NCBI GenBank assembly: GCA_963713865.1
Contig: OY970208.1
Coordinates: 384,001 to 448,000 of the forward strand
From: an uncultured candidate division Zixibacteria bacterium
GTDB taxonomy: Bacteria > Zixibacteria > MSB-5A5 > RBG-16-43-9
DNA: 64,000 nt
Direction: 5' to 3'
Shown here: piece by piece, positions 55,906 through 64,000 of the stretch
How positions within the stretch are numbered: position 1 is the stretch's first letter
Layout of the letters: each line of letters begins with the position of its first letter
Notes under the pieces: model-generated
Seen by the model: the letters and a program-made list of their open reading frames with translations, nothing else
What the model was told of the DNA's origin: nothing
The model's database searches: none
Made by a program: the position numbers and the translations under genes

Positions 55906-56775
55906 TTATTCTTTCAATAAACTCACATCTGCAGGCATGCCCGGCTTTAAAATCTGCAAAGGGTTATCCAGGCTGACCTTTATCCCGAAAACAAGCTTCA
56001 CCCTTTCCTCTTTGGTTTGGATATTCTTGGGAGTGAATTCAGCCTGGCTGGAGATATAAGTTACTTTCCCCTCGAAAACTTTATCCGGATAAGTATCTAT
56101 TTTGACCTCTGCCTTCTGTCCTAATTTAACTTTGCCTAAATCTGTTTCTTTGATATAGATTTTCACCCAGGGCTTGGAGAGATCCCCTAAGGTCAAAAGA
56201 GAGTTGCCGGGCAAGACCACTTCACCCATCTCTGTGTTTTTACTTAATACCAGACCATCAATCGGTGATTTTATTATGGAGTTATCTATATTGGTTTTGA
56301 TTAACTCGATAGTCGCCTTATTCTGCTCGGTCAAATGAGAGGCTAAATTAAACTGGTCCTTTGCCACATCATATTTTGTCTCCATATCATCCAATTGCTG
56401 CTGGGTAGCACTCCCGGCCTTGAAAAGCTCTTTTATTCTATCCAAATTAGTCTTGAGATTATCTAAACTGGACCTGGATTGGGAGAGTTGAGCCAAAGAA
56501 ACCTGATAAGCTGCTTCTACCTGTTTAAGCTGAGCCTGAAGCTCTTTTGCTTCTAACTCGATTAAAACTTGGCCTTTAATTACGCTGTCCCCTTCATCTA
56601 TCATAAGCTTTTCTATCCTTCCGGAAACCTTTGAGCTTACCTCCACCTCAGTAATCTCAATCGTGCCCGAGGCAGATATTTGGTTTTTATTATTTCCCCC
56701 TTTAGTCTTGAGCAAAAAATAAAGAACCAATCCCAAGACTATTATAAATAGAAACAAAATCCTTAGCCTTTTCAT
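55906..56775 (-). CDS. YbhG/HlyD-family periplasmic adaptor
   Basis: ASGTIE, AEFTPKNIQT, LKPGMPA. Confidence 0.92.
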   Translation of the reverse strand: MKRLRILFLFIIVLGLVLYFLLKTKGGNNKNQISASGTIEITEVEVSSKVSGRIEKLMIDEGDSVIKGQVLIELEAKELQAQLKQVEAAYQVSLAQLSQSRSSLDNLKTNLDRIKELFKAGSATQQQLDDMETKYDVAKDQFNLASHLTEQNKATIELIKTNIDNSIIKSPIDGLVLSKNTEMGEVVLPGNSLLTLGDLSKPWVKIYIKETDLGKVKLGQKAEVKIDTYPDKVFEGKVTYISSQAEFTPKNIQTKEERVKLVFGIKVSLDNPLQILKPGMPADVSLLKE

Positions 56776-56865
56776 TATTTTCTCCTTTACCTTATTATCA
56801 TATCATTCTTAAATGAAGAATATAAGAACCTCCTCCCTTTTTCACAAATGAAATTAATTTTTTCG

Positions 56866-57036
56866 TTTTTGTAGTTGCCAAATTTATTGGCATTTGATTT
56901 TTGGTAGGTTAGACATTCCTATCTAACCGTCGTGAACACTTCGTAGCGTCCGGACCCGTATCGGATGTTTTTTTATAATTTTGTCGGGCAGTCTTTAAAG
57001 ACCTGACCTATAAAAAATAAGAATTTTTATTGACAA
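56866..57036 (+). repeat. GTAG-REP cluster plus promoter start; left copy of an imperfect direct repeat
   Basis: 26 bp (56940-56965) identical to 62930-62955; shared GTAGTTGCC..GGCATTTGATTTTT. Confidence 0.8.
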
Positions 57037-57058
57037 GATTTTTGGGGTGTAGTATAAT
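57030..57058 (+). promoter_or_regulatory. Perfect consensus sigma70 promoter in a Pc-like position
   Basis: TTGACA (57030-57035), 17 bp, TATAAT (57053-57058). Confidence 0.85.
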
Positions 57059-57382
57059 ATTAACTATAAAAGTCTGAATTTGAATTCATTGGGAGTTATA
57101 ATGGGAATAAACGCAACAGGTTCGTCTATAACCCCAATTTTAAGATGATAAACGAACTTATTACGCCAGTAACCAAGTTAAATGAAATTTCGGGTATGAA
57201 AAAGAGAGCAAGACATCGAATTTTCTTTTCGGTTTTGATATACTATTGTACTATTATAAGTCTTGCACAGGGGTACCTTGGTGTTATGGAGCTTTTGGGC
57301 TTATCTAGAGCGCGGATTGAATTGAGGAGAAAAAAATGAAAAAGGTAAATATGGAAACAAAATCTATCTACCTATTATAACT

Positions 57383-58543
57383 ATGTCTATAAGCACAAGC
57401 GTAATCAAAGAAGCTATTATTGAAAACCTCAAGAGTCAAGGATTTAAGATTAAAAAGAATGGATTAATCTCTATTTCTCAGAATCTGACAAAAGAGCATA
57501 TTAGAGGACTTCATGACCGTGGTCGTGTTGAAAAAATATTATCAGAAAAAACATTTATTAAGGAACACTTTAGTGAATTGTCTACTTATTTTGCAGATGG
57601 TACTTCAGTAAACCCTGAGAAATTTAAACCTGTTGTCCATATAGTACAGCCAGATACTGAGTTTTCAGCACTATTCCGTTTTGCAACACTACTTTGGAGT
57701 GTCCCTGTCTCTCAGGGATATGGTAGAAGATTAAGATTTATAGTCATTGATGAACATAACGGAAAGCTTGTTGGACTTTTCGCTCTTGGTGACCCCGTTT
57801 TTAATTTGAATGTCCGTGATAAATGGATTGGATGGGACCAACAATTGCGATCAGAAAGACTATATAATGTTATGGACTTATTTGTAGTCGGGGCTGTACC
57901 TCCTTATTCTCAATTGGTATGTGGTAAACTTATGGCAATGTTGGCTACAAGTTATGAAATTAGGAAAATCCTGTGGCATAAATACAGAGATTCAGAAACT
58001 ACGATCAAAAAAGAATTAAAAAAACCACACCTTGTCTTGTTAACTACCTCATCTGCCTTAGGTAGATCTTCGCTCTATAATCGAATAACTTTTAATGGGA
58101 AACCTCTTTTTATAAAAATCGGGGAAACGGTCGGTTGGGGACACTTCCATCTTTCTAATGGAAGCTTTAAACTAATGCGTAATTATTTAAGCTATATAGA
58201 ACATCCAATTAATAAATCTCATAGATTTGGACAAGGACCCAATTGGAAAATACGAACAATAAGAACCTGCCTTGAACTATTAGGGCTATCTCCTGATTTA
58301 TTAATGCACGGTATTAAAAGAGAGGTTTACATTGCACCTTTAGCAGAGAATTATAAAGAGTTTCTTTTAGGACAATCAAAGAGACCCAAGTATTATGAAA
58401 TAAGAAAAGAAAGTCTAATAGATTTTTTCACTCAGCGATGGCTTCTCCCGAGGTCGTTTCGCAATAATGATTACATAAGAGTTAGAGCAAAAGATATACT
58501 AAGAGAAATAAAGAAAATTGCAAAAGATAAAGAGGTTCATTGA
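57383..58543 (+). CDS. druA: DruA-like (DUF4338) protein
   Basis: WSVPVSQGYGRRLRF..DEHNGKLVG..ALGDPVFNL.VRD.WIGW, GAVPPYS.L..GKL, TSSALGRSS.YNR, GQGPNWK. Confidence 0.8.
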   Translation: MSISTSVIKEAIIENLKSQGFKIKKNGLISISQNLTKEHIRGLHDRGRVEKILSEKTFIKEHFSELSTYFADGTSVNPEKFKPVVHIVQPDTEFSALFRFATLLWSVPVSQGYGRRLRFIVIDEHNGKLVGLFALGDPVFNLNVRDKWIGWDQQLRSERLYNVMDLFVVGAVPPYSQLVCGKLMAMLATSYEIRKILWHKYRDSETTIKKELKKPHLVLLTTSSALGRSSLYNRITFNGKPLFIKIGETVGWGHFHLSNGSFKLMRNYLSYIEHPINKSHRFGQGPNWKIRTIRTCLELLGLSPDLLMHGIKREVYIAPLAENYKEFLLGQSKRPKYYEIRKESLIDFFTQRWLLPRSFRNNDYIRVRAKDILREIKKIAKDKEVH

Positions 58544-58544
58544 A

Positions 58545-61070
58545 ATGGCAAAAAACTTTGAAGATATTAGTTGTATTTTCTGTGGAGAAAAAAACAATTG
58601 TAGAGATACAGCTTGCATCTCATGCAAAATGCCTCTAGATATTGGAAAAGAATTCTTAGGAAAAACCATTAATAACTACATCTTAAAGGAATATAAGACC
58701 AGAGGTTTTTATGGACTTACCTTTAGAGCAGTCGATAACTATGGGAAGAATTTTGCTATTAAGCTTATATCAACAAGTAGTTATTCAAAAAACAGCAAGG
58801 ATTTTTATAGAGAAGCTGGAATGTATGCAAATCTTCCTGCAACACCCTCAATTGTAAATTATGTTGGTGCTGGGGAGACAACAATCTTATACAACGACAG
58901 ACCTTTAGACTTTTTTTATATAGTTTGTCAGTGGGTAAATGGTTCAGTATTTAAAGATTTTATTTCCGATCAAAATGTTGAACCCGAGGATTTAATAATC
59001 GCGGCCAGAGATTTATTATTGGGATTACAGGACTTATATGATAACAACCTTTGGCATAATGACTTGCATGATGAAAATGTAATGATAGAACCCTTAAGCC
59101 AAACTCAAATTAGAAGATTTAATAGGTCGATCCCACGAATATATAGAATCATTGATGTAGGAAGTATGGTTTATAGAAATCCAGCAGATACAAAGTCATT
59201 CACAGATATGAATTGTATAGGGAATATATTGTTTCAAATATCCGAGAAACTCAAAACGAACTTTAGCGAGTTTCCAAAGGAAGATCAATATTTCATAAAT
59301 CTCTTAGATAGCACCTTTATTCAGATGATGGATGAACATCCTGGAAGATCATTTCCAACGCCTGTTGATGCTCTCAATCAAATAGAGGAATTTTATAAAA
59401 TTTCTCGAATTGGTGAAATTTCTCCAAGCAAGAAATTAGATAGCCCATATGGATATATAAATGCAAATGATATACCTTCTCCTTGGCTCTTAAAACAAAT
59501 GTTTTCAGACAAGTTCCCTTATTTTAATAGAATCATGAGTACGTCCGACCAATGCCTTTTAATTACTGGCCCCCGTGGATGTGGTAAGACCATGATTTTA
59601 AAATATATGCGTTTTATAACTATGTATGATTCTCAAGAAGAAAATAAAGAAGAATTCTTAAAAAATCTGCCATATATCGGCCTTTTTTTATCTGCCAGAA
59701 CAAACTTTGGAAACTATCTAGTTTCATATAGGCAACAAGAATGGATAAACAGTGAATCCAAAATTCTATTATATTTTAATATTCTGGTCTCGATTGAGCT
59801 AATAGATGTTCTTTACAGATTAGTTTTTGATCGTTTAATAGAAGAGCAGCAAATCAAACCAATAATCGATATGATATCAGAACGATTTTCCGTGCCCTTT
59901 GTGAATTTACTCACTGTCAAAACGAAACTGGTGCAAATTAGCAGACACTTGATAGCGAACAAAGATGTTACTACAACAATAGATAATTCAACCCCTGCCT
60001 ATTTGAATGATCTGTTCCAAGTTCTTAGAAGTGTTATTCCCATCATAAGAGATAAAGAAGTTATTATTTTGATAGATGATCTTTCTTTGCCTCGCATTCC
60101 TGTTAAAATACAAAAGTCTATTATTCCGTCTGTATTTAATACGGGGTCAAGTTATAAAACAAGGATTACTGCACATAGCGATGGAATAGTCTTTAAGGAT
60201 TATTCTGGTGAAGTATACAAAGCAAACAGAGATTTTACTCAAATTAATCTTGGATATGAATATTGGCAACTTTCAGAAAAATATGAGACGTGTCGTGATG
60301 GCTTTGATGACATATTAAACAAAAGATTTAATTTAGCAAAAAAAGAAACTTTTATAGGACTGGAAAACATGCTTGAGCGGGGTGATAAGTTGGATAATAT
60401 AGGGAGAGAAATCCACCGTTTATATAAGGAAAAACTTCTAAGAACCCTCAATTATCACGGGGCAAAAGTTTTAATTAAATTGTGCTCGGGTGACTTAAGT
60501 TATCTTCTTGAGATTTTAGGCAAAATGGAACTTCGAGCTAATGGAAAAACACCTATCCCAATCAGAATTCAAAATAGCGTAATCAGAAATTATGCAAGAA
60601 ACGAGTTAAGAAGTCTTCAGGATATTAGATCAGATTATATAAGATGTTCTCTTTATGATATTGCTTATTATTTTGGTGTATGGTCGAAAAGTCAGTTAAT
60701 AAAGGCAGATGAAGACTATATTCGGATTGAATTTCCCATGCAAAAACTTCCTGAAAAGTTAAAGGTTGTGGCAAGAGAATTACTTTGTTACGGGGTATTC
60801 ATAGACGGGGGGTCCAGCACTATGTCTGATGGACAAACTGCCCGAAAATTTCTATTCCGAAGAATATTCACTCCAGCGTTTCCGACTACATTCACTGATC
60901 ACAGCACGTATCCAATGGTACCGAAATCTTTCAAAAAATTTGTCGAGAATCCTAAAGATTTTGTTCGGGAAAGAATGAGCGCTTATGAAATACCTCCTTC
61001 AGAACAACAAAGATTAGAACAACTTGATTTAATGCTTGAAGATAATGGGGAACCCAATGAAAATCTTTAA
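58545..61070 (+). CDS. Zn-ribbon, Ser/Thr-kinase-like and ORC/CDC6-like P-loop ATPase fusion
   Basis: CIFC..CISC; RGFYG, FAIK, HNDLHDEN, IDVG; GPRGCGKT Walker A; IILIDD Walker B. Confidence 0.85.
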   Translation: MAKNFEDISCIFCGEKNNCRDTACISCKMPLDIGKEFLGKTINNYILKEYKTRGFYGLTFRAVDNYGKNFAIKLISTSSYSKNSKDFYREAGMYANLPATPSIVNYVGAGETTILYNDRPLDFFYIVCQWVNGSVFKDFISDQNVEPEDLIIAARDLLLGLQDLYDNNLWHNDLHDENVMIEPLSQTQIRRFNRSIPRIYRIIDVGSMVYRNPADTKSFTDMNCIGNILFQISEKLKTNFSEFPKEDQYFINLLDSTFIQMMDEHPGRSFPTPVDALNQIEEFYKISRIGEISPSKKLDSPYGYINANDIPSPWLLKQMFSDKFPYFNRIMSTSDQCLLITGPRGCGKTMILKYMRFITMYDSQEENKEEFLKNLPYIGLFLSARTNFGNYLVSYRQQEWINSESKILLYFNILVSIELIDVLYRLVFDRLIEEQQIKPIIDMISERFSVPFVNLLTVKTKLVQISRHLIANKDVTTTIDNSTPAYLNDLFQVLRSVIPIIRDKEVIILIDDLSLPRIPVKIQKSIIPSVFNTGSSYKTRITAHSDGIVFKDYSGEVYKANRDFTQINLGYEYWQLSEKYETCRDGFDDILNKRFNLAKKETFIGLENMLERGDKLDNIGREIHRLYKEKLLRTLNYHGAKVLIKLCSGDLSYLLEILGKMELRANGKTPIPIRIQNSVIRNYARNELRSLQDIRSDYIRCSLYDIAYYFGVWSKSQLIKADEDYIRIEFPMQKLPEKLKVVARELLCYGVFIDGGSSTMSDGQTARKFLFRRIFTPAFPTTFTDHSTYPMVPKSFKKFVENPKDFVRERMSAYEIPPSEQQRLEQLDLMLEDNGEPNENL

Positions 61071-62082
61071 ATTTATAGATAAACTGCAAGAGACTCCTTA
61101 TAAGAAAAAGAATCTCGTTCTAATTCTAGCTGCTGGCTTTGAAGAAAGGGATCTCTCAATTATTGAAATAATTAAAGCAGTTGCTATCCCTATAAAAAAA
61201 ATAATAGTTCTTGATTATGAGAATACAGAACAAAATGAGCCAGTCCGTTCAAAAGTTATTAACATGGCAAGGTCAATTTCAGCAGCTGTTAAAACAGTAA
61301 AAGTGGGAGAATTACCAAATCTGTTGACTCATATAGAAATACTTGAAAATGACATGTTAATCATAGATATCACAGGGATGTCAAGGATTATCATATTCCA
61401 AATTTTGAATCAAATTGACAAAGCAAAAATATCCTACAACATTGCATACACCGAGGCAGAAGAATATTTTCCGCTAAAAGGACTATATGACACTCTTATT
61501 GCAAATCAAGCAAGTGAAGAAGTTGCTTTTACCAGATATCTGGAAACCGAAAAAGCAGAATTTGTATACTCATATGATTGCTCCATAATTCAACCCCCTG
61601 AATTTATGGGTAATCCTGAGCCAGGGAGACCCGCAATGATATTAGCTTTTTTTACTTTTAAAAGATCACGCTTACAAGCTATATTGCAAGTTCTAGAAAT
61701 TGAAAAAAGAGTTTTAATCTTAAGTGAACCTGTAAGGCAAGACTTAAAATGGAGAAAGGATTTTATGAAAATTGCAAATCTGGATATAATCCAAAAAAAT
61801 GAACCAGATGTTAACATTCTGGGCACTCTTGACGCATTCCAGCTAATGGATTTTTTTGAGGATAAGATATACAGAAATAAAGAGTACACAAAATATAATT
61901 TGATACTCGCTCCTCTTGGGAGCAAAATGCAAACGATTGGAAGTTACTTATTTTGGAGAAAACATTCTGAAATTAGTGTTTTATTTTCACAACCAGGATC
62001 TTATTTTAAGGACGCCTACTCAAAAGGCTATAGAGATACATTCATCATTACTGCAGAAACATTAGAAAAGACCATATCTTGA
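61057..62082 (+). CDS. Hypothetical protein with two CARF-like Rossmann units
   Basis: LILAAGFEER / IIDITGMSR and ILAFFTFKRSR / LAPLGSKMQ; overlaps the upstream stop. Confidence 0.6.
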   Translation: MKIFKFIDKLQETPYKKKNLVLILAAGFEERDLSIIEIIKAVAIPIKKIIVLDYENTEQNEPVRSKVINMARSISAAVKTVKVGELPNLLTHIEILENDMLIIDITGMSRIIIFQILNQIDKAKISYNIAYTEAEEYFPLKGLYDTLIANQASEEVAFTRYLETEKAEFVYSYDCSIIQPPEFMGNPEPGRPAMILAFFTFKRSRLQAILQVLEIEKRVLILSEPVRQDLKWRKDFMKIANLDIIQKNEPDVNILGTLDAFQLMDFFEDKIYRNKEYTKYNLILAPLGSKMQTIGSYLFWRKHSEISVLFSQPGSYFKDAYSKGYRDTFIITAETLEKTIS

Positions 62083-62093
62083 GATGGACTTTT

Positions 62094-62663
62094 ATGAAAG
62101 AAAATACCACTATAACAAAGACTCTTGATAGTTCAAGAAAGATTATTACAATAATTCTAATTTTTCAAATATTCCTGCTCCTCCTAACATTTGCGCTTTT
62201 ATTTATCAATAATGCAACACAATTGTATTTATTTAATATCGGATATTCTATCATTATAAATGCAGCTCTCTTTGGATTTGCAGGCTGTTTAATTTATTTT
62301 TCGCGTAAAAGCTATGTCTACTTAATAACAAATAAATTTTTGAAAATAGTAAACGATAACACTACAAATAAAGGAATTGATGATTATGTGATTTCTAATA
62401 TTATTTATGGATATTATTTATATTTGGCCCTACGACCTTTTGTAGGTCTTATTATCGGCCCAATTATATATATGTTAGTTCTTACAGGGTTAATTACTTT
62501 TATGAAAACTTCTATTTCAATGGACGCTGATTTATCACGATCTGGAAGATATTTAATTTATTTTCTCTCATTTATTGGCGGACATGCATCGAGCGATATT
62601 TTAGATTATTTTTCAAAATTAGCAAAAAAAATAGTTGAAAAAAGTAACGAAAAAATATCCTAG
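62094..62663 (+). CDS. 4-TM hypothetical protein, candidate membrane effector
   Basis: Four hydrophobic helices; GFAGCL, YLALRPFVG, FIGG motifs. Confidence 0.75.
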   Translation: MKENTTITKTLDSSRKIITIILIFQIFLLLLTFALLFINNATQLYLFNIGYSIIINAALFGFAGCLIYFSRKSYVYLITNKFLKIVNDNTTNKGIDDYVISNIIYGYYLYLALRPFVGLIIGPIIYMLVLTGLITFMKTSISMDADLSRSGRYLIYFLSFIGGHASSDILDYFSKLAKKIVEKSNEKIS

Positions 62664-62699
62664 AGGGGACGGTTCTATTTGAAGAATGCCCGAAACTTC

Positions 62700-62803
62700 A
62701 TTTAACAACAGGCTTGCGCAAAGGCCAACAGGCAAACAAAAACGCTTTATTATTGAATCCCTTGACTCTGGTGTTTTTGTTTCGCAAGCCCACCACGTTA
62801 TAC
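62700..62803 (+). mobile_element. attC site
   Basis: R'' ATTTAAC (RYYYAAC); GGCTTGCG(C)AA / TTCGCAAGCC with one extra base; inner stem AAACAAAAACGC/GTGTTTTTGTTT; GTT at 62797; 104 bp. Confidence 0.82.
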
Positions 62804-62889
62804 TCCCTCGTTTAGTCCGATTTTGCCCGCCTTATGCGGACTGTTTAAAGACATAATGAAATTTCTGTCCTACGGAGAAAAATATTCTA

Positions 62890-63026
62890 TTTTGTAGTTG
62901 CCCAAATTATTGGGCATTTGATTTTTCAGTTCGTAGCGTCCGGACCCGTATCGGACGCTATTTTTTGGTAGATTTTGCCGGACAGACTTCATTGGCCCGA
63001 CCTACTTTATAAAATCTCCTTGACAA
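62890..63026 (+). repeat. GTAG-REP cluster plus TTGACA; right copy of the direct repeat
   Basis: Same REP order as 56866-57036; TTGACA 90 bp from the start of the identical 26-mer in both copies. Confidence 0.8.
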
Positions 63027-63141
63027 CGTACACGTTAAAATTATTTTAGCTTTGAACAGTTATGATTATAAGCACAGATTAAATCTAAACATTTCAGCGA
63101 TATTCCCTGGTCTTAACCGGAGAATATCCGAAGGAGGAAAG

Positions 63142-63786
63142 ATGAAAAAGATGAGTGCACTGGTTGTTCTCTTGGCGCTTTTGACTGGAGGTATTATGAA
63201 TGCCCAGGATTTAAAAACCATAAAGCTTCCTGCTCCCGCTTTAAAGAACGACAAACTGTTCATGCAAACAGTAAAAGAGAGAAAAAGCAGCCGGGAATTC
63301 TCCGAAAAGGAGCTCAGCCTGCAGGACCTGTCTAACCTGCTCTGGTGTGCCAACGGGGTTAACCGGCCGGAAAGCGGAATGCGCACCAGCCCCTCAGCCA
63401 TGAATAAGCAGGACGTGGACGTTTATGCAGTATTGAAAGATGGGATATATCTGTATGAAGCCATAAAGCATGAGCTACTTCCTGTCGTTTCCGGAGATTT
63501 TCGCAAAAATACCGGTATGCAGCCCTATGTAGGCACTGCCCCTCTGAACCTGGTCTATGTTTCCGATCTTGCTAAATTCGATTTCGTTAAAGAGCGGGAA
63601 GGGCAGGTTATGACTGCAGCCATAGATGCCGGACACTGTTCGCAGAATGTGTATCTGTATGGAGCTGCCGCCAACCTGGCGGTTGTCACCCGCACCTCGA
63701 TTGATAAGACAAAAATGGCTGAAATATTAAAACTGAGACCCCAGCAGCTGGTCATAATGGCACAAACCGTCGGTTACCCGAAATGA
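63142..63786 (+). CDS. Exported SagB/ThcOx-like nitroreductase
   Basis: ERKSSREF, LSNLLW.A.G.NR, RTSPSA, DAGH.SQNVYL; AAGGAGG RBS. Confidence 0.88.
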   Translation: MKKMSALVVLLALLTGGIMNAQDLKTIKLPAPALKNDKLFMQTVKERKSSREFSEKELSLQDLSNLLWCANGVNRPESGMRTSPSAMNKQDVDVYAVLKDGIYLYEAIKHELLPVVSGDFRKNTGMQPYVGTAPLNLVYVSDLAKFDFVKEREGQVMTAAIDAGHCSQNVYLYGAAANLAVVTRTSIDKTKMAEILKLRPQQLVIMAQTVGYPK

Positions 63787-63912
63787 GTAGGTTGGGTTTC
63801 GATAGCTACCCATCTACGAAAAAGTAGCGTTGCCACTCCGGCCCTACGGGGGCTTGCTCTGGCAACGATATTTATTAACAGATAATCGTCCTCACTGGAG
63901 TGAGGACGCTAC
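63787..63912. repeat. GTAG-type REP cluster
   Basis: GTAGGTTGGGT..ACCCATCTAC; GTAGCGTTGCCA..TGGCAACG; CGTCCTCAC..GTGAGGACGCTAC. Confidence 0.7.
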
Positions 63913-63943
63913 GGTTTTTATTAAATTTGTTCAATTAATACTT

Positions 63944-64000
63944 ATGTCTGAAATCAAATATCGAAAAGCAAATAGTAAAGACGCGAATGCCATATCGCTC
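63944..64000 (+). CDS. Possible GNAT acetyltransferase N-terminus, cut by the window edge
   Basis: MSEIKYRKANSKDANAISL resembles the GNAT start I.YR.A...D...I. Confidence 0.4.
   Translation, partial: MSEIKYRKANSKDANAISL

Follow-up and report, generated by a model that had tools for sequence, protein, structure and literature searches.

A 5.6-kb four-gene operon of a Zixibacteria bacterium is probably a single integron-type gene cassette at a conserved attI-like entry site

RESULTS

Four genes between an entry site and an attC-type site

The window analyzed here is a stretch of 64,000 nucleotides from the genome of an uncultured Zixibacteria bacterium (called G000 below). Near its right end lie four genes whose ends abut or overlap, enclosed by the following features (window coordinates; + is the forward strand).

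56862-56974, +, left repeated intergenic module with GTAG-led hairpins and terminator-like sites at 56876-56892 and 56945-56969
57030-57058, +, consensus sigma-70 promoter, TTGACA-17-TATAAT, pointing into the proposed cassette
57097-57177, +, attI-like entry site ending AACCAAG↓TT (the arrow marks the exchange point), with repeated ATAAACGMAAC and GTTCGTCTAT motifs
57177-57197, +, proposed cassette 5' end: core GTTAAAT (57177-57183) and a 14-nt extension, complementary to 62686-62706
57383-58543, +, DruA-family protein (DUF4338), 386 aa; Pfam PF14236, E 5e-89; PADLOC DruA, E 1.5e-137
58518-61070, +, Ser/Thr protein kinase fused to an ORC/CDC6-like AAA ATPase, 850 aa; Pfam Pkinase and ORC-CDC6-like
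61036-62082, +, CARF-like protein, 348 aa; PADLOC CARF6 models, E 1.2e-22
62079-62663, +, hydrophobic protein, 194 aa, with several long hydrophobic stretches in the translation as read by eye
62686-62706, +, inverted copy of the cassette's first bases, with R'' ATTTAAC (62700-62706) at its end
62700-62803, +, attC-type site: R'', 4-nt spacer, L'', variable hairpin, L', 6-nt spacer, R'
62797-62900, +, 3' conserved segment after the last cassette, with a hairpin
62885-62964, +, right repeated intergenic module with two terminator-like hairpins

The likely start of the kinase-ATPase gene is the ATG at 58545, and the alignment of its product with a Nitrospirota homologue begins at residue 9. This protein also matches the PADLOC CARF6 profile CARF_STK_AAA (PDLC01925; E 1.7e-62) over positions 4-716 of 1187. 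The CARF-like protein, which has no Pfam match, aligns with positions 892-1183 of the fused STK_AAA_CARF profile (PDLC01925; E 2e-16). The 194-aa protein, for which neither Pfam nor PADLOC gave a significant family, is probably a multi-pass membrane protein. Taken together, these family matches suggest that the cargo may be a phage-defence or signalling module. In a search of 285 genomes of the phylum, the kinase-AAA protein was present in one, G000 itself, a pattern in favour of acquisition of the cassette.

A distant homologue of the gene trio lies at locus L133, where DruA (32% identity), a kinase-AAA protein (24%) and a CARF-like gene make up a single cassette of 4,884 nt at a different entry site; its ends pair at 19 of 20 positions. 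Because the combination of DruA, kinase-ATPase and CARF recurs at 24-32% identity, we regard it as a candidate defence system. We also considered the Nitrospirota kinase-AAA relative (68% identity) as a cassette and rejected it: the match is cut by a contig end, with no DruA gene upstream and no cassette-like boundary.

Different cargoes abut one conserved entry site

The entry site is common to G000, G003, G006 and G008, where it follows an HlyD-family gene and the 85 nt upstream of the junction are shared; the copy in G000 is 84-89% identical to the other three. Similarity among the four genomes ends at AACCAAG↓TTA. Over the 100 nt that precede G↓TT the sequences are 75-89% identical, a figure that falls to 50-59% past it. 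In an alignment of the region (A2), invariant columns number 65 of 84 as far as the junction and 4 of 62 beyond. The first cargo after the junction differs, being an MGS-like gene in G006, DUF5655 and HSDR_N in G003 and yet another sequence in G008. We place the left crossover between G57177 and T57178. A second entry site is common to G000 and G001; there similarity breaks at GAG↓TTA, and the cargo is a trypsin-like peptidase in G000 versus SIR2 and HerA in G001.

The entry site also occurs in at least 41 metagenome contigs (41 of 80 loci among the matches listed), followed by many different sequences that start with GTTA. G000 itself carries four copies, and a further alignment (A7) comprised 31 entry-site copies. 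The site is not a classical attI. No Rfam family matched 56800-57400 at E <= 1. A structured RNA was considered and rejected: the consensus fold has an energy of -5 kcal/mol, and none of its 7 predicted pairs shows covariation. The sequence would be better explained by recurring motifs for the binding of protein to double-stranded DNA. The promoter, located 120 nt upstream of the cassette, is the sole 12/12 consensus match in 56700-63100, and it is conserved in G008 and at a downstream platform of G000.

The two ends of the operon are complementary

The operon is bounded by a 21-nt inverted repeat (57177-57197 and 62686-62706; GTTAAATGAAATTTCGGGTAT at 57177) with 19 of 21 positions (90%) complementary. 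Its left core GTTAAAT agrees fully with GTTRRRY, and the inverse copy begins 22 nt past the last stop codon (62661-62663). Coordinates and sequence of both arms, as well as the distance from the stop codon, are as an earlier note on this DNA had given them. By itself the repeat is unremarkable, as 30 inverted pairs were found in 14 kb. The delimitation of the cassette therefore rests on comparison with related genomes and metagenome contigs.

When anchored at a junction that relatives define independently, the pairing does exceed chance. The first ~20 nt of the cassette are the reverse complement of ~20 nt that end in R'', and cassettes repeatedly open in this way, with ~20 nt complementary to their own end: pairing of at least 16 of 20, with an inverse copy ending in AAC, was found at 8 of 13 anchors. 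Among 2,988 random GTTA sites, searched within 8 kb, 48 score at least 16 and 5 at least 18. The present cassette scores 18/20, which ties for the top among 253 attC-shaped candidates in the genome; the maximum in the shuffled genome was 16 (258 candidates).

The right boundary was likewise compared with relatives. Sequence after G62797 recurs 3' of the last cassette in the next array (genome positions 453362-453435), with similarity beginning at GTT, and the latter part of this 3' segment (query positions 58-111) recurs once more at 449792-449845. At E <= 0.001 the segment is absent from 40 of 40 relatives, with one chance-level match in G030. A groundwater relative of the operon (an X4 contig, ~93% identical), whose cover excludes the left end, matches 62367-62801 and then diverges. 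One X1 contig matches from 62687 on, the sequence before that position being unlike. We place the right crossover after G62797. The earlier proposal, a single large cassette of several genes with its boundaries at 57177 and 62797, is thus backed by relatives at both ends.

The attC-type site has paired L boxes and unequal spacers

Integron recombination sites open with an inverse core, RYYYAAC, at their 5' end and close with GTTRRRY at their 3' end. Here R'' ATTTAAC (62700-62706) fits the former, and R' GTTATAC (62797-62803) fits the latter at 6 of 7 positions, with T at the second R; with R' there, the site measures 104 nt from R'' to R'. L'' GGCTTGCG (62711-62718) is perfectly complementary to L' CGCAAGCC (62783-62790), giving an 8-bp stem, and the inner stem of the hairpin has 12 bp. 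The 8-bp stem contains no extrahelical base; asymmetry lies in the spacers instead (4 versus 6 nt). The earlier description of a 104-bp attC with paired L boxes and GTT at 62797 stands. Read by eye, the L133 site and the site beside an IntI remnant in G000 do have an extra base in L''. Locus L089 has the same R'' and L boxes that are different yet complementary (CATTGACG and CGCCAATG).

By z score the fold of the integrated site is weak (-1.5 and -2.8). In a further comparison the integrated site reached -20 kcal/mol, against -11.2 +/- 2.7 for 200 shuffles, and the circle junction -32 kcal/mol. With a covariance model built without this site (R2) and filters off, the best match in 56000-64000 was 62697-62805 on the + strand (21.5 bits; E 0.0016 in 8 kb), and its R and L boxes fall in register; genome-wide this score would not be significant. 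R2 was trained on 9 rows from one narrow sequence family, one row being a reverse-strand self-match, and it left the site unreported in a 120-kb search with default filters (E <= 10) and in a whole-genome search at E <= 0.01. A model of two sites (R1) missed it at E <= 10. MAFFT alignments of attC sites (A1 and A3) put the boxes out of register and so were not used for the model. A scan for the YAAC-stem-GTT shape alone gave 166 and 167 matches on the two strands versus 145 and 151 in the shuffled genome; because it is unspecific, the anchored tests described above were used instead. Rfam gave 0 matches at gathering scores across the whole window and, at E <= 1, one chance-level sRNA match in 62600-63100. 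Inside the operon the best R2 match was 12.0 bits (E 0.45), which, with the single cassette at L133, agrees with the earlier view that there is no internal attC and that the four genes form one unit.

A short recombinase accompanies the entry site in other contigs

No integron integrase passed the NCBIfam TIGR02249 cut-off in G000, which keeps three decayed integrase remnants. In family f1, 0 of 9 genomes have one over the cut-off, and in the order 3 of 41 genomes have a true IntI over it. Upstream of the entry site in G000 lie the promoter, repeats and the HlyD-family gene, with no adjacent IntI. Of the parts of a strict integron (intI, attI and Pc), the locus thus lacks an adjacent IntI and has a promoter into the cassettes by consensus only. 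Elsewhere, in 13 of 41 contigs with the entry site, a short XerA/IntI-like gene or what remains of it immediately precedes the site on its own strand, and none has a true IntI at that place. The designation of the locus as an integron accordingly holds for the cassette structure and fails for an adjacent IntI, the recombinases that neighbour the site elsewhere being without the IntI-specific insert.

An intact recombinase gene beside the entry site is found in G024 only, plus an L085 copy cut by the contig end. The G024 enzyme has 286 aa and is 35% identical to the IntI of G014, with a gap at the IntI extra domain. Its score exceeds the cut-off of the NCBIfam XerA-type model (240 versus 220 bits) and falls below that of the integron integrase model (219 versus 265 bits). 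Relatives occur in 9 of 285 genomes of the phylum, including G024. The other eight contribute 9 further matches, none with the entry site and each followed by an open frame with cysteine motifs, which, reading it by eye, we take to be an IS91-type transposase. When the platforms were compared by BLAST with 8 IntI loci, only G024 matched.

The earlier note had judged the cassette to be probably still excisable, and our results do not bear this out: to the lack of an integrase over the cut-off and the three decayed remnants is added that no circle or empty site was found. A circle joint and an empty-site joint were absent from the contigs of four public runs for 56800-63100; assembled contigs cannot show rare forms, and contig depth and cover gaps are uninformative. 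No empty site was present among 40 relatives. The size of the cassette also bears on mobility. A preprint reports that recombination declines with cassette size, and in Vibrio cholerae 4-kb attC spacing went with no cassette recovery.

DISCUSSION

The comparison of the operon with related genomes and metagenome contigs makes it very probable that 57178-62797 (5,620 nt) is a single integron-type gene cassette, with four genes, inserted at a conserved attI-like entry site. The cassette would have arrived by site-specific recombination at G↓TT, catalyzed by a tyrosine recombinase, most likely the short XerA/IntI-like enzyme that other contigs encode upstream of the same entry site. In the excised circle, the two cassette ends would pair into one long stem, and after integration the consensus promoter would drive the four genes. 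G000 would have lost the recombinase gene, a loss that would leave the cassette fixed unless the enzyme is supplied from outside.

The enzyme could instead have been a true IntI, with the locus a remnant of a classical integron (CALIN-like) and the short recombinase incidental, and we consider this unlikely. A source is at hand, since besides the three genomes of the order with an IntI over the cut-off, G000 retains, at 753.9 kb, a 68-aa C-terminal IntI remnant that is 79% identical to the IntI of G014; an attI of its own comes next, and then a SnoaL cassette with a short attC of canonical form. Sites of the attC type are moreover used by several IntI enzymes (PMC2095811). The attI beside the true IntI of G014 and G000 (TATAACCAT[A/C]G↓TTGGGC) is, however, unrelated to the present entry site, and it is the short recombinase or its remnants, never a true IntI, that stands in the 13 of 41 contigs.

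Promoter, entry site, cassette and tail together make up a 6-kb presence/absence difference. This unit, flanked by direct repeats, falls within a variable stretch that runs from the HlyD-family gene to a histidine ammonia-lyase gene. It could be argued that the inverted repeat is a chance one and that the operon lies in a genomic island whose gain or loss came about by homologous recombination between two ~100-nt direct repeats (56862-56974 and 62885-62964). The repeats are real, the left module matching 62885-62964 at 86-89% in direct repeats D4, D6 and D8; similar GTAG-led hairpins are scattered in related genomes. G004 has one hybrid copy that joins the HlyD-family gene to a nitroreductase gene, and G001 lacks everything from window coordinate 56863 to ~5.5 kb past the window end (69500). 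Such exchange accounts for the 6-kb presence/absence only and leaves the inner structure unexplained: the end of similarity at G↓TT, which four genomes and dozens of contigs have in common, the recurring pairing of start and end, and the loss of similarity to X4 at 62801. Island and cassette are levels that coexist and do not compete, and as a replacement for the cassette the island is very improbable.

We give equally little credit to a non-autonomous transposon that has the 21-nt arms as its terminal inverted repeats and lies beside an unrelated terminator hairpin. The arms do lie at the very ends of the cargo, and the same ends (35 and 37 nt) flank an unrelated 2.06-kb cassette in L089, L128 and L115 (89% identity at the start; 95% between 62671-62707 and the end of the L089 cassette), as one would expect of a transposon family. 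Against this, a transposase gene and a target duplication are both missing (flanking bases CCAA and AACA), other cassettes with other arms keep the layout of GTT, AAC copy, L boxes and GTT, in every case the left arm adjoins the one conserved entry site at G↓TT, and similarity to X4 runs through the hairpin to 62801 and not only to 62706.

Returning to the single cassette at the entry site, we suggest tentatively that it may belong to a separate lineage of integron-like elements that occurs both in this phylum and in metagenomes from sediment and groundwater. Such a lineage would combine a ~286-aa XerA/IntI-like tyrosine recombinase without the I2 insert, encoded upstream of the entry site in the orientation of the cassettes, an ~85-nt multi-motif entry site and a ~20-bp outer stem; it would routinely move multi-gene defence operons of 2-5.6 kb, and its entry site would outlive the recombinase as an expression slot under the promoter, with several copies in a genome. 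Multi-gene cassettes of 2-5.6 kb are common in this system, and neighbouring cassettes carry a methylase with a partner gene, and SIR2 with HerA. The usual picture of an integron cassette is one small gene. The four-gene 5.6-kb cassette, its 4.9-kb relative and several two-gene cassettes of 2-3 kb suggest that whole defence systems can be stored in this way. Association with a recombinase that has no IntI-specific helix is relevant to the evolution of single-strand hairpin recombination, an ability that has been tied to the I2 helix (PMC7790495). The system is a natural test case: hairpin cassettes may be processed by an enzyme that has no such helix, or recombination at these sites may proceed by a different route. 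In a limited literature search we found no publication on Zixibacteria integrons, nor any account of cassette arrays whose IntI-like enzyme has no extra domain.

Comparison with known systems

With class 1 and Vibrio chromosomal integrons the locus shares recombinase-free cargo in one orientation, an upstream promoter that would drive the cassettes, an imperfect R''/L''/L'/R' hairpin, exchange at G↓TT and varied cassettes per entry site. The order of recombinase and cassettes is also alike, since in G024, L085 and the contigs with remnants the recombinase gene precedes the cassettes and is oriented like them, as is the true IntI gene of G014. Cassettes of classical integrons pair start and end over 7 nt; here the pairing extends over ~20 nt. 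The spacers of the present system are unequal (3-4 nt versus 5-7 nt, with one outlier at 17 nt), no extrahelical base is seen in this L stem, and no IntI is adjacent. The cassette is among the largest of the integron type. Its 5.6 kb and four genes are far above the ~2 kb given for the largest cassettes known in 2016 (PMC4889954).

Clusters of attC sites lacking an integrase (CALIN; PMC4889954) resemble the locus in having cassette and attC without a nearby integrase, with decayed remnants elsewhere; this locus also keeps a conserved entry site, a promoter and multiple copies per genome. The default attC clustering distance of IntegronFinder was set at 4 kb, twice the ~2 kb of the largest cassettes. 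Spacing of 5.6 kb exceeds this distance, so the sites would not be linked, and default settings would miss cassettes as large as these. The category SALIN, reportedly introduced with IntegronFinder 2.0, denotes a single attC site lacking an integrase.

In its cargo the cassette resembles the phage-defence cassettes of mobile and chromosomal integrons described in two recent studies (10.1101/2024.07.02.601719; 10.64898/2026.03.17.712381), which share defence-type genes in cassettes and differ in host phylum and recombinase type. DruA, strongly matched, recalls Druantia; no DruE helicase or other Dru protein matched among the four proteins, so the operon does not show the gene set of a Druantia system. 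DruA is tied to the kinase-AAA/CARF pair here and in L133 and not in the Nitrospirota relative. Judged by domain content (Ser/Thr kinase, AAA ATPase and CARF), the operon would belong with PADLOC CARF6, whose 1,187-position profile the kinase-AAA and CARF-like proteins jointly cover; CARF6 is one fused protein, whereas here its parts are encoded by two adjacent genes and are accompanied by a probable membrane protein.

Cassette ends and cargo genes

The host genome is a single contig of 2.72 Mb. The earlier note had described a GTTAAAT core from 57177 whose 21 nt are complementary at 19 of 21 positions to 62686-62706, and these coordinates proved exact. The inverse copy begins 22 nt past the last stop codon and closes in ATTTAAC (62700-62706). 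Four genes, whose neighboring ends abut or overlap, lie between the cassette ends.

Features of the DruA cassette
Gene 1, + strand: DruA-family protein (Pfam E 5e-89)
Gene 2, + strand: Ser/Thr kinase fused to an ORC/CDC6-like ATPase
Gene 3, + strand: CARF-like protein
Gene 4, + strand: hydrophobic protein of 194 aa
attC-type site, left half: ATTTAAC (62700-62706), 4-nt spacer, GGCTTGCG (62711-62718), then a variable hairpin
attC-type site, right half: CGCAAGCC (62783-62790, perfect partner of GGCTTGCG), 6-nt spacer, GTTATAC (62797-62803)

The cassette is unusually large, and its cargo is likely a defense system.

Boundaries of the cassette

Comparisons at the left and right boundaries indicate that the claim of one cassette bounded at 57177 and 62797 describes a real unit. 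On the left, a sequence of ~85 nt that follows the upstream HlyD-family gene and ends in AACCAAG|TTA is common to the host genome (G000) and three relatives (G003, G006, and G008). All six genome pairs show 75-89% identity in the 100 nt leading to the junction G and 50-59% after it. Alignment A2 has 65 invariant columns among the 84 that lead up to the junction and 4 among the 62 beyond it. The cargo past the junction differs in each case: the DruA operon in G000, an MGS-like gene in G006, DUF5655 and HSDR_N genes in G003, and another sequence again in G008. A second entry site, at 523.6 kb of the genome, is common to G000 and G001 and breaks at GAG|TTA, with a trypsin-like peptidase as cargo in G000 and SIR2+HerA in G001. 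When metagenome contigs were scanned with an exact 18-mer of the entry site, 119 stretches were found and 80 examined; the entry site aligned with a score of at least 37 in 41 of these 80 listed matches (119 total), and the other 39 scored 23 or less. Alignment A7 (31 rows) shows conservation up to GTTA and a drop afterwards.

On the right, the ~100 nt past G62797 reappear in G000 behind the final cassette of the next array, with similarity from GTT onward. A groundwater metagenome from a separate study (run X4) has a contig with ~93% identity to the operon; this contig matches 62367-62801 and then continues in sequence unlike the window, and another contig (run X1) matches only from 62687 onward. 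Three stretches (L089, L128, and L115) hold a 2,056-nt cassette with different cargo, including a viperin-like gene; at both ends, over the first 35 nt and the last 37 nt (to R''), this cassette has 89-95% identity to the DruA cassette. The paired ends thus behave like recombination-site sequence and not like cargo. The 2.06-kb cassette carries two genes (L089 1696-3603) unrelated to the DruA cargo, one with a weak viperin-type match (E 2e-15).

At 57142-57147, within a well-conserved stretch of the entry site, the window has AAGATG in place of GAGGGG, the consensus of 31 aligned copies. This reading is unique to the window copy, with other copies varying at some of these columns; it disrupts a CCCC/GGGG inverted pair and supplies the ATG of a 64-aa frame (57145-57339).

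Chance tests and covariance models

Taken alone, the DruA-cassette repeat is no more than chance would give. The cassette-end pair (I5) is one of 30 inverted pairs in 14 kb; a shape-only YAAC-stem-GTT scan gave 166 and 167 matches, one count per strand, and a shuffled genome gave 145 and 151; and the integrated hairpin site folds slightly better than shuffles (z -1.5 and -2.8). The case for a cassette rests on comparison with other sequences. In an anchored test, each junction G served as anchor, and the 20 nt that follow were searched for their best reverse-complement match within 8 kb. Eight of 13 anchors scored at least 16, with the copy terminating in AAC and backed by a hairpin site in every case, and the DruA cassette scored 18 (of 20 nt); the remaining five scored 13-14, one of which (14) still indicated the correct site. 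Random GTTA sites (n=2,988) reached at least 16 in 48 cases and at least 18 in 5. Among 253 attC-shaped candidates in the genome, the DruA cassette tied for first with one at 524.6 kb (score 18), and the maximum among 258 such candidates in a shuffled genome was not above 16. The predicted folding energy is -32 kcal/mol for the ends joined in silico as in the circle and -20 kcal/mol for the integrated site (200 shuffles, -11.2 ± 2.7).

For covariance model R1, two sites of the 523-kb array were used and the structure was assigned by hand; R2 was rebuilt from nine R1 matches that do not include the DruA-cassette site. With filters off over 56000-64000, the top R2 match is 62697-62805 on the + strand (21.5 bits, E 0.0016), and its R and L boxes fall where the model places them; elsewhere R2 reached 13.2 bits on the reverse strand and 12.0 bits at best inside the operon. 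With default filters R2 did not report the site, and at genome scale the site was not significant. The R2 result gives modest support for an attC-type site.

Three further attC-type sites on the + strand at the window start belong to the sequence family of those at 524.5 and 526.6 kb of the genome: 1554-1635, 2028-2112, and 4510-4611. They score 42.9, 31.9, and 16.5 bits, respectively, with R1, which was built without them; R2, which includes them, gives 75, 64, and 61 bits. The R boxes of these sites look decayed (e.g., GTT to ATT), and the sites are probably an old cassette array.

The four genes as one unit

The operon leaves no room for a site between its genes, and neither the shape scan nor R2 gave an internal match, in agreement with the earlier note's observation of no internal attC. 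In stretch L133, genes for DruA (32% identity), a kinase-ATPase (24%), and a CARF-like protein keep the order seen in the window and form a single 4,884-nt cassette right behind another entry site, with an end pairing of 19/20 and a short hairpin site; the fourth gene is absent. Both the grouping of the trio and its cassette form thus recur. Among 285 genomes of the phylum, no other one yielded the kinase-ATPase. Its closest relative found, in a Nitrospirota assembly (L045), is 68% identical and has no DruA upstream, which points to transfer between phyla. The DNA-level match is 68% over 1 kb, to 58542-59584, and a 436-aa gene takes the place of DruA there.

The larger variable region

Promoter, entry site, cassette, and tail make up a 6-kb difference between direct repeats of 86-89% identity. 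A related genome, G004, has a single hybrid repeat and no platform, and G001 is missing the whole span between window coordinate 56863 and window-scale 69500 (~5.5 kb past the window end). From these comparisons, the region varies at two levels, by site-specific exchange at G|TT and by repeat-mediated gain or loss of whole units.

Several other elements lie in or near the region. GTAG-led hairpin repeats at 62885-62919 and 63818-63919, presumably akin to REP elements, occur in dozens of copies at 90-97% identity in related genomes. Just beyond the window (L029, genome 447000-462000), two further entry sites follow nitroreductase and GNAT genes; one reads GCT for GTT, and the other has three cassettes, whose hairpin sites lie at 451277-451376, about 452650-452752, and 453261-453369 of the genome. 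A histidine ammonia-lyase gene bounds the variable region at its far end. A fourth entry site (L041, genome 523000-531000) has the trypsin-like peptidase cassette and a two-gene cassette of an N6/N4 DNA methylase and a gene of unassigned family; its counterpart in G001 (L046) has the SIR2+HerA cassette of 2.8 kb.

Recombinase and mobility

No integron integrase over the cut-off was found in G000, which has three integrase remnants (753.9, 795.4, and 1868.4 kb). Three of 41 relatives encode a true IntI, and none of the 9 genomes of the family does. Where it is present (in relative G014 and as a remnant in G000), the adjoining attI is unlike the DruA-cassette entry site, and in G000 there is also a short canonical attC. 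This remnant, within locus L001 (genome 752428-755634), comprises 68 C-terminal aa of the true enzyme. Behind it, in the same orientation, come an attI of its own, a cassette with a SnoaL-like gene, and a canonical attC of 72 nt that has an extra base in L''.

In relative G024, the entry site lies directly downstream of a same-strand gene for a 286-aa tyrosine recombinase, which has 35% identity to IntI, a gap at the position of the IntI extra domain, and a score over the XerA-type NCBIfam cut-off and below the integron integrase model. Among the 41 metagenome contigs from the matches listed, 13 have this gene or its fragments right upstream of the entry site, a count that includes three near-identical copies; L085 alone is uninterrupted, as far as the contig covers the gene. 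The start of L133 resembles, by eye, the final 15 codons of this gene, and promoter-like sequence replaces the gene in G000 and five other contigs. By gene neighborhood, the entry site appears to be linked to this short recombinase and not to true IntI.

The suggestion that the cassette is probably still excisable found no support. The genome is without an intact recombinase, a search of assembled contigs and relatives found no circle and no empty site, and the entry-site copy departs from consensus (AAGATG for GAGGGG). A preprint reports that cassette recovery drops as size rises, a 4-kb spacing being accompanied by no recovery. The system that hosts the DruA cassette is integron-like, yet its recombinase, its entry site, and the length of its paired ends set it apart from classical integrons.
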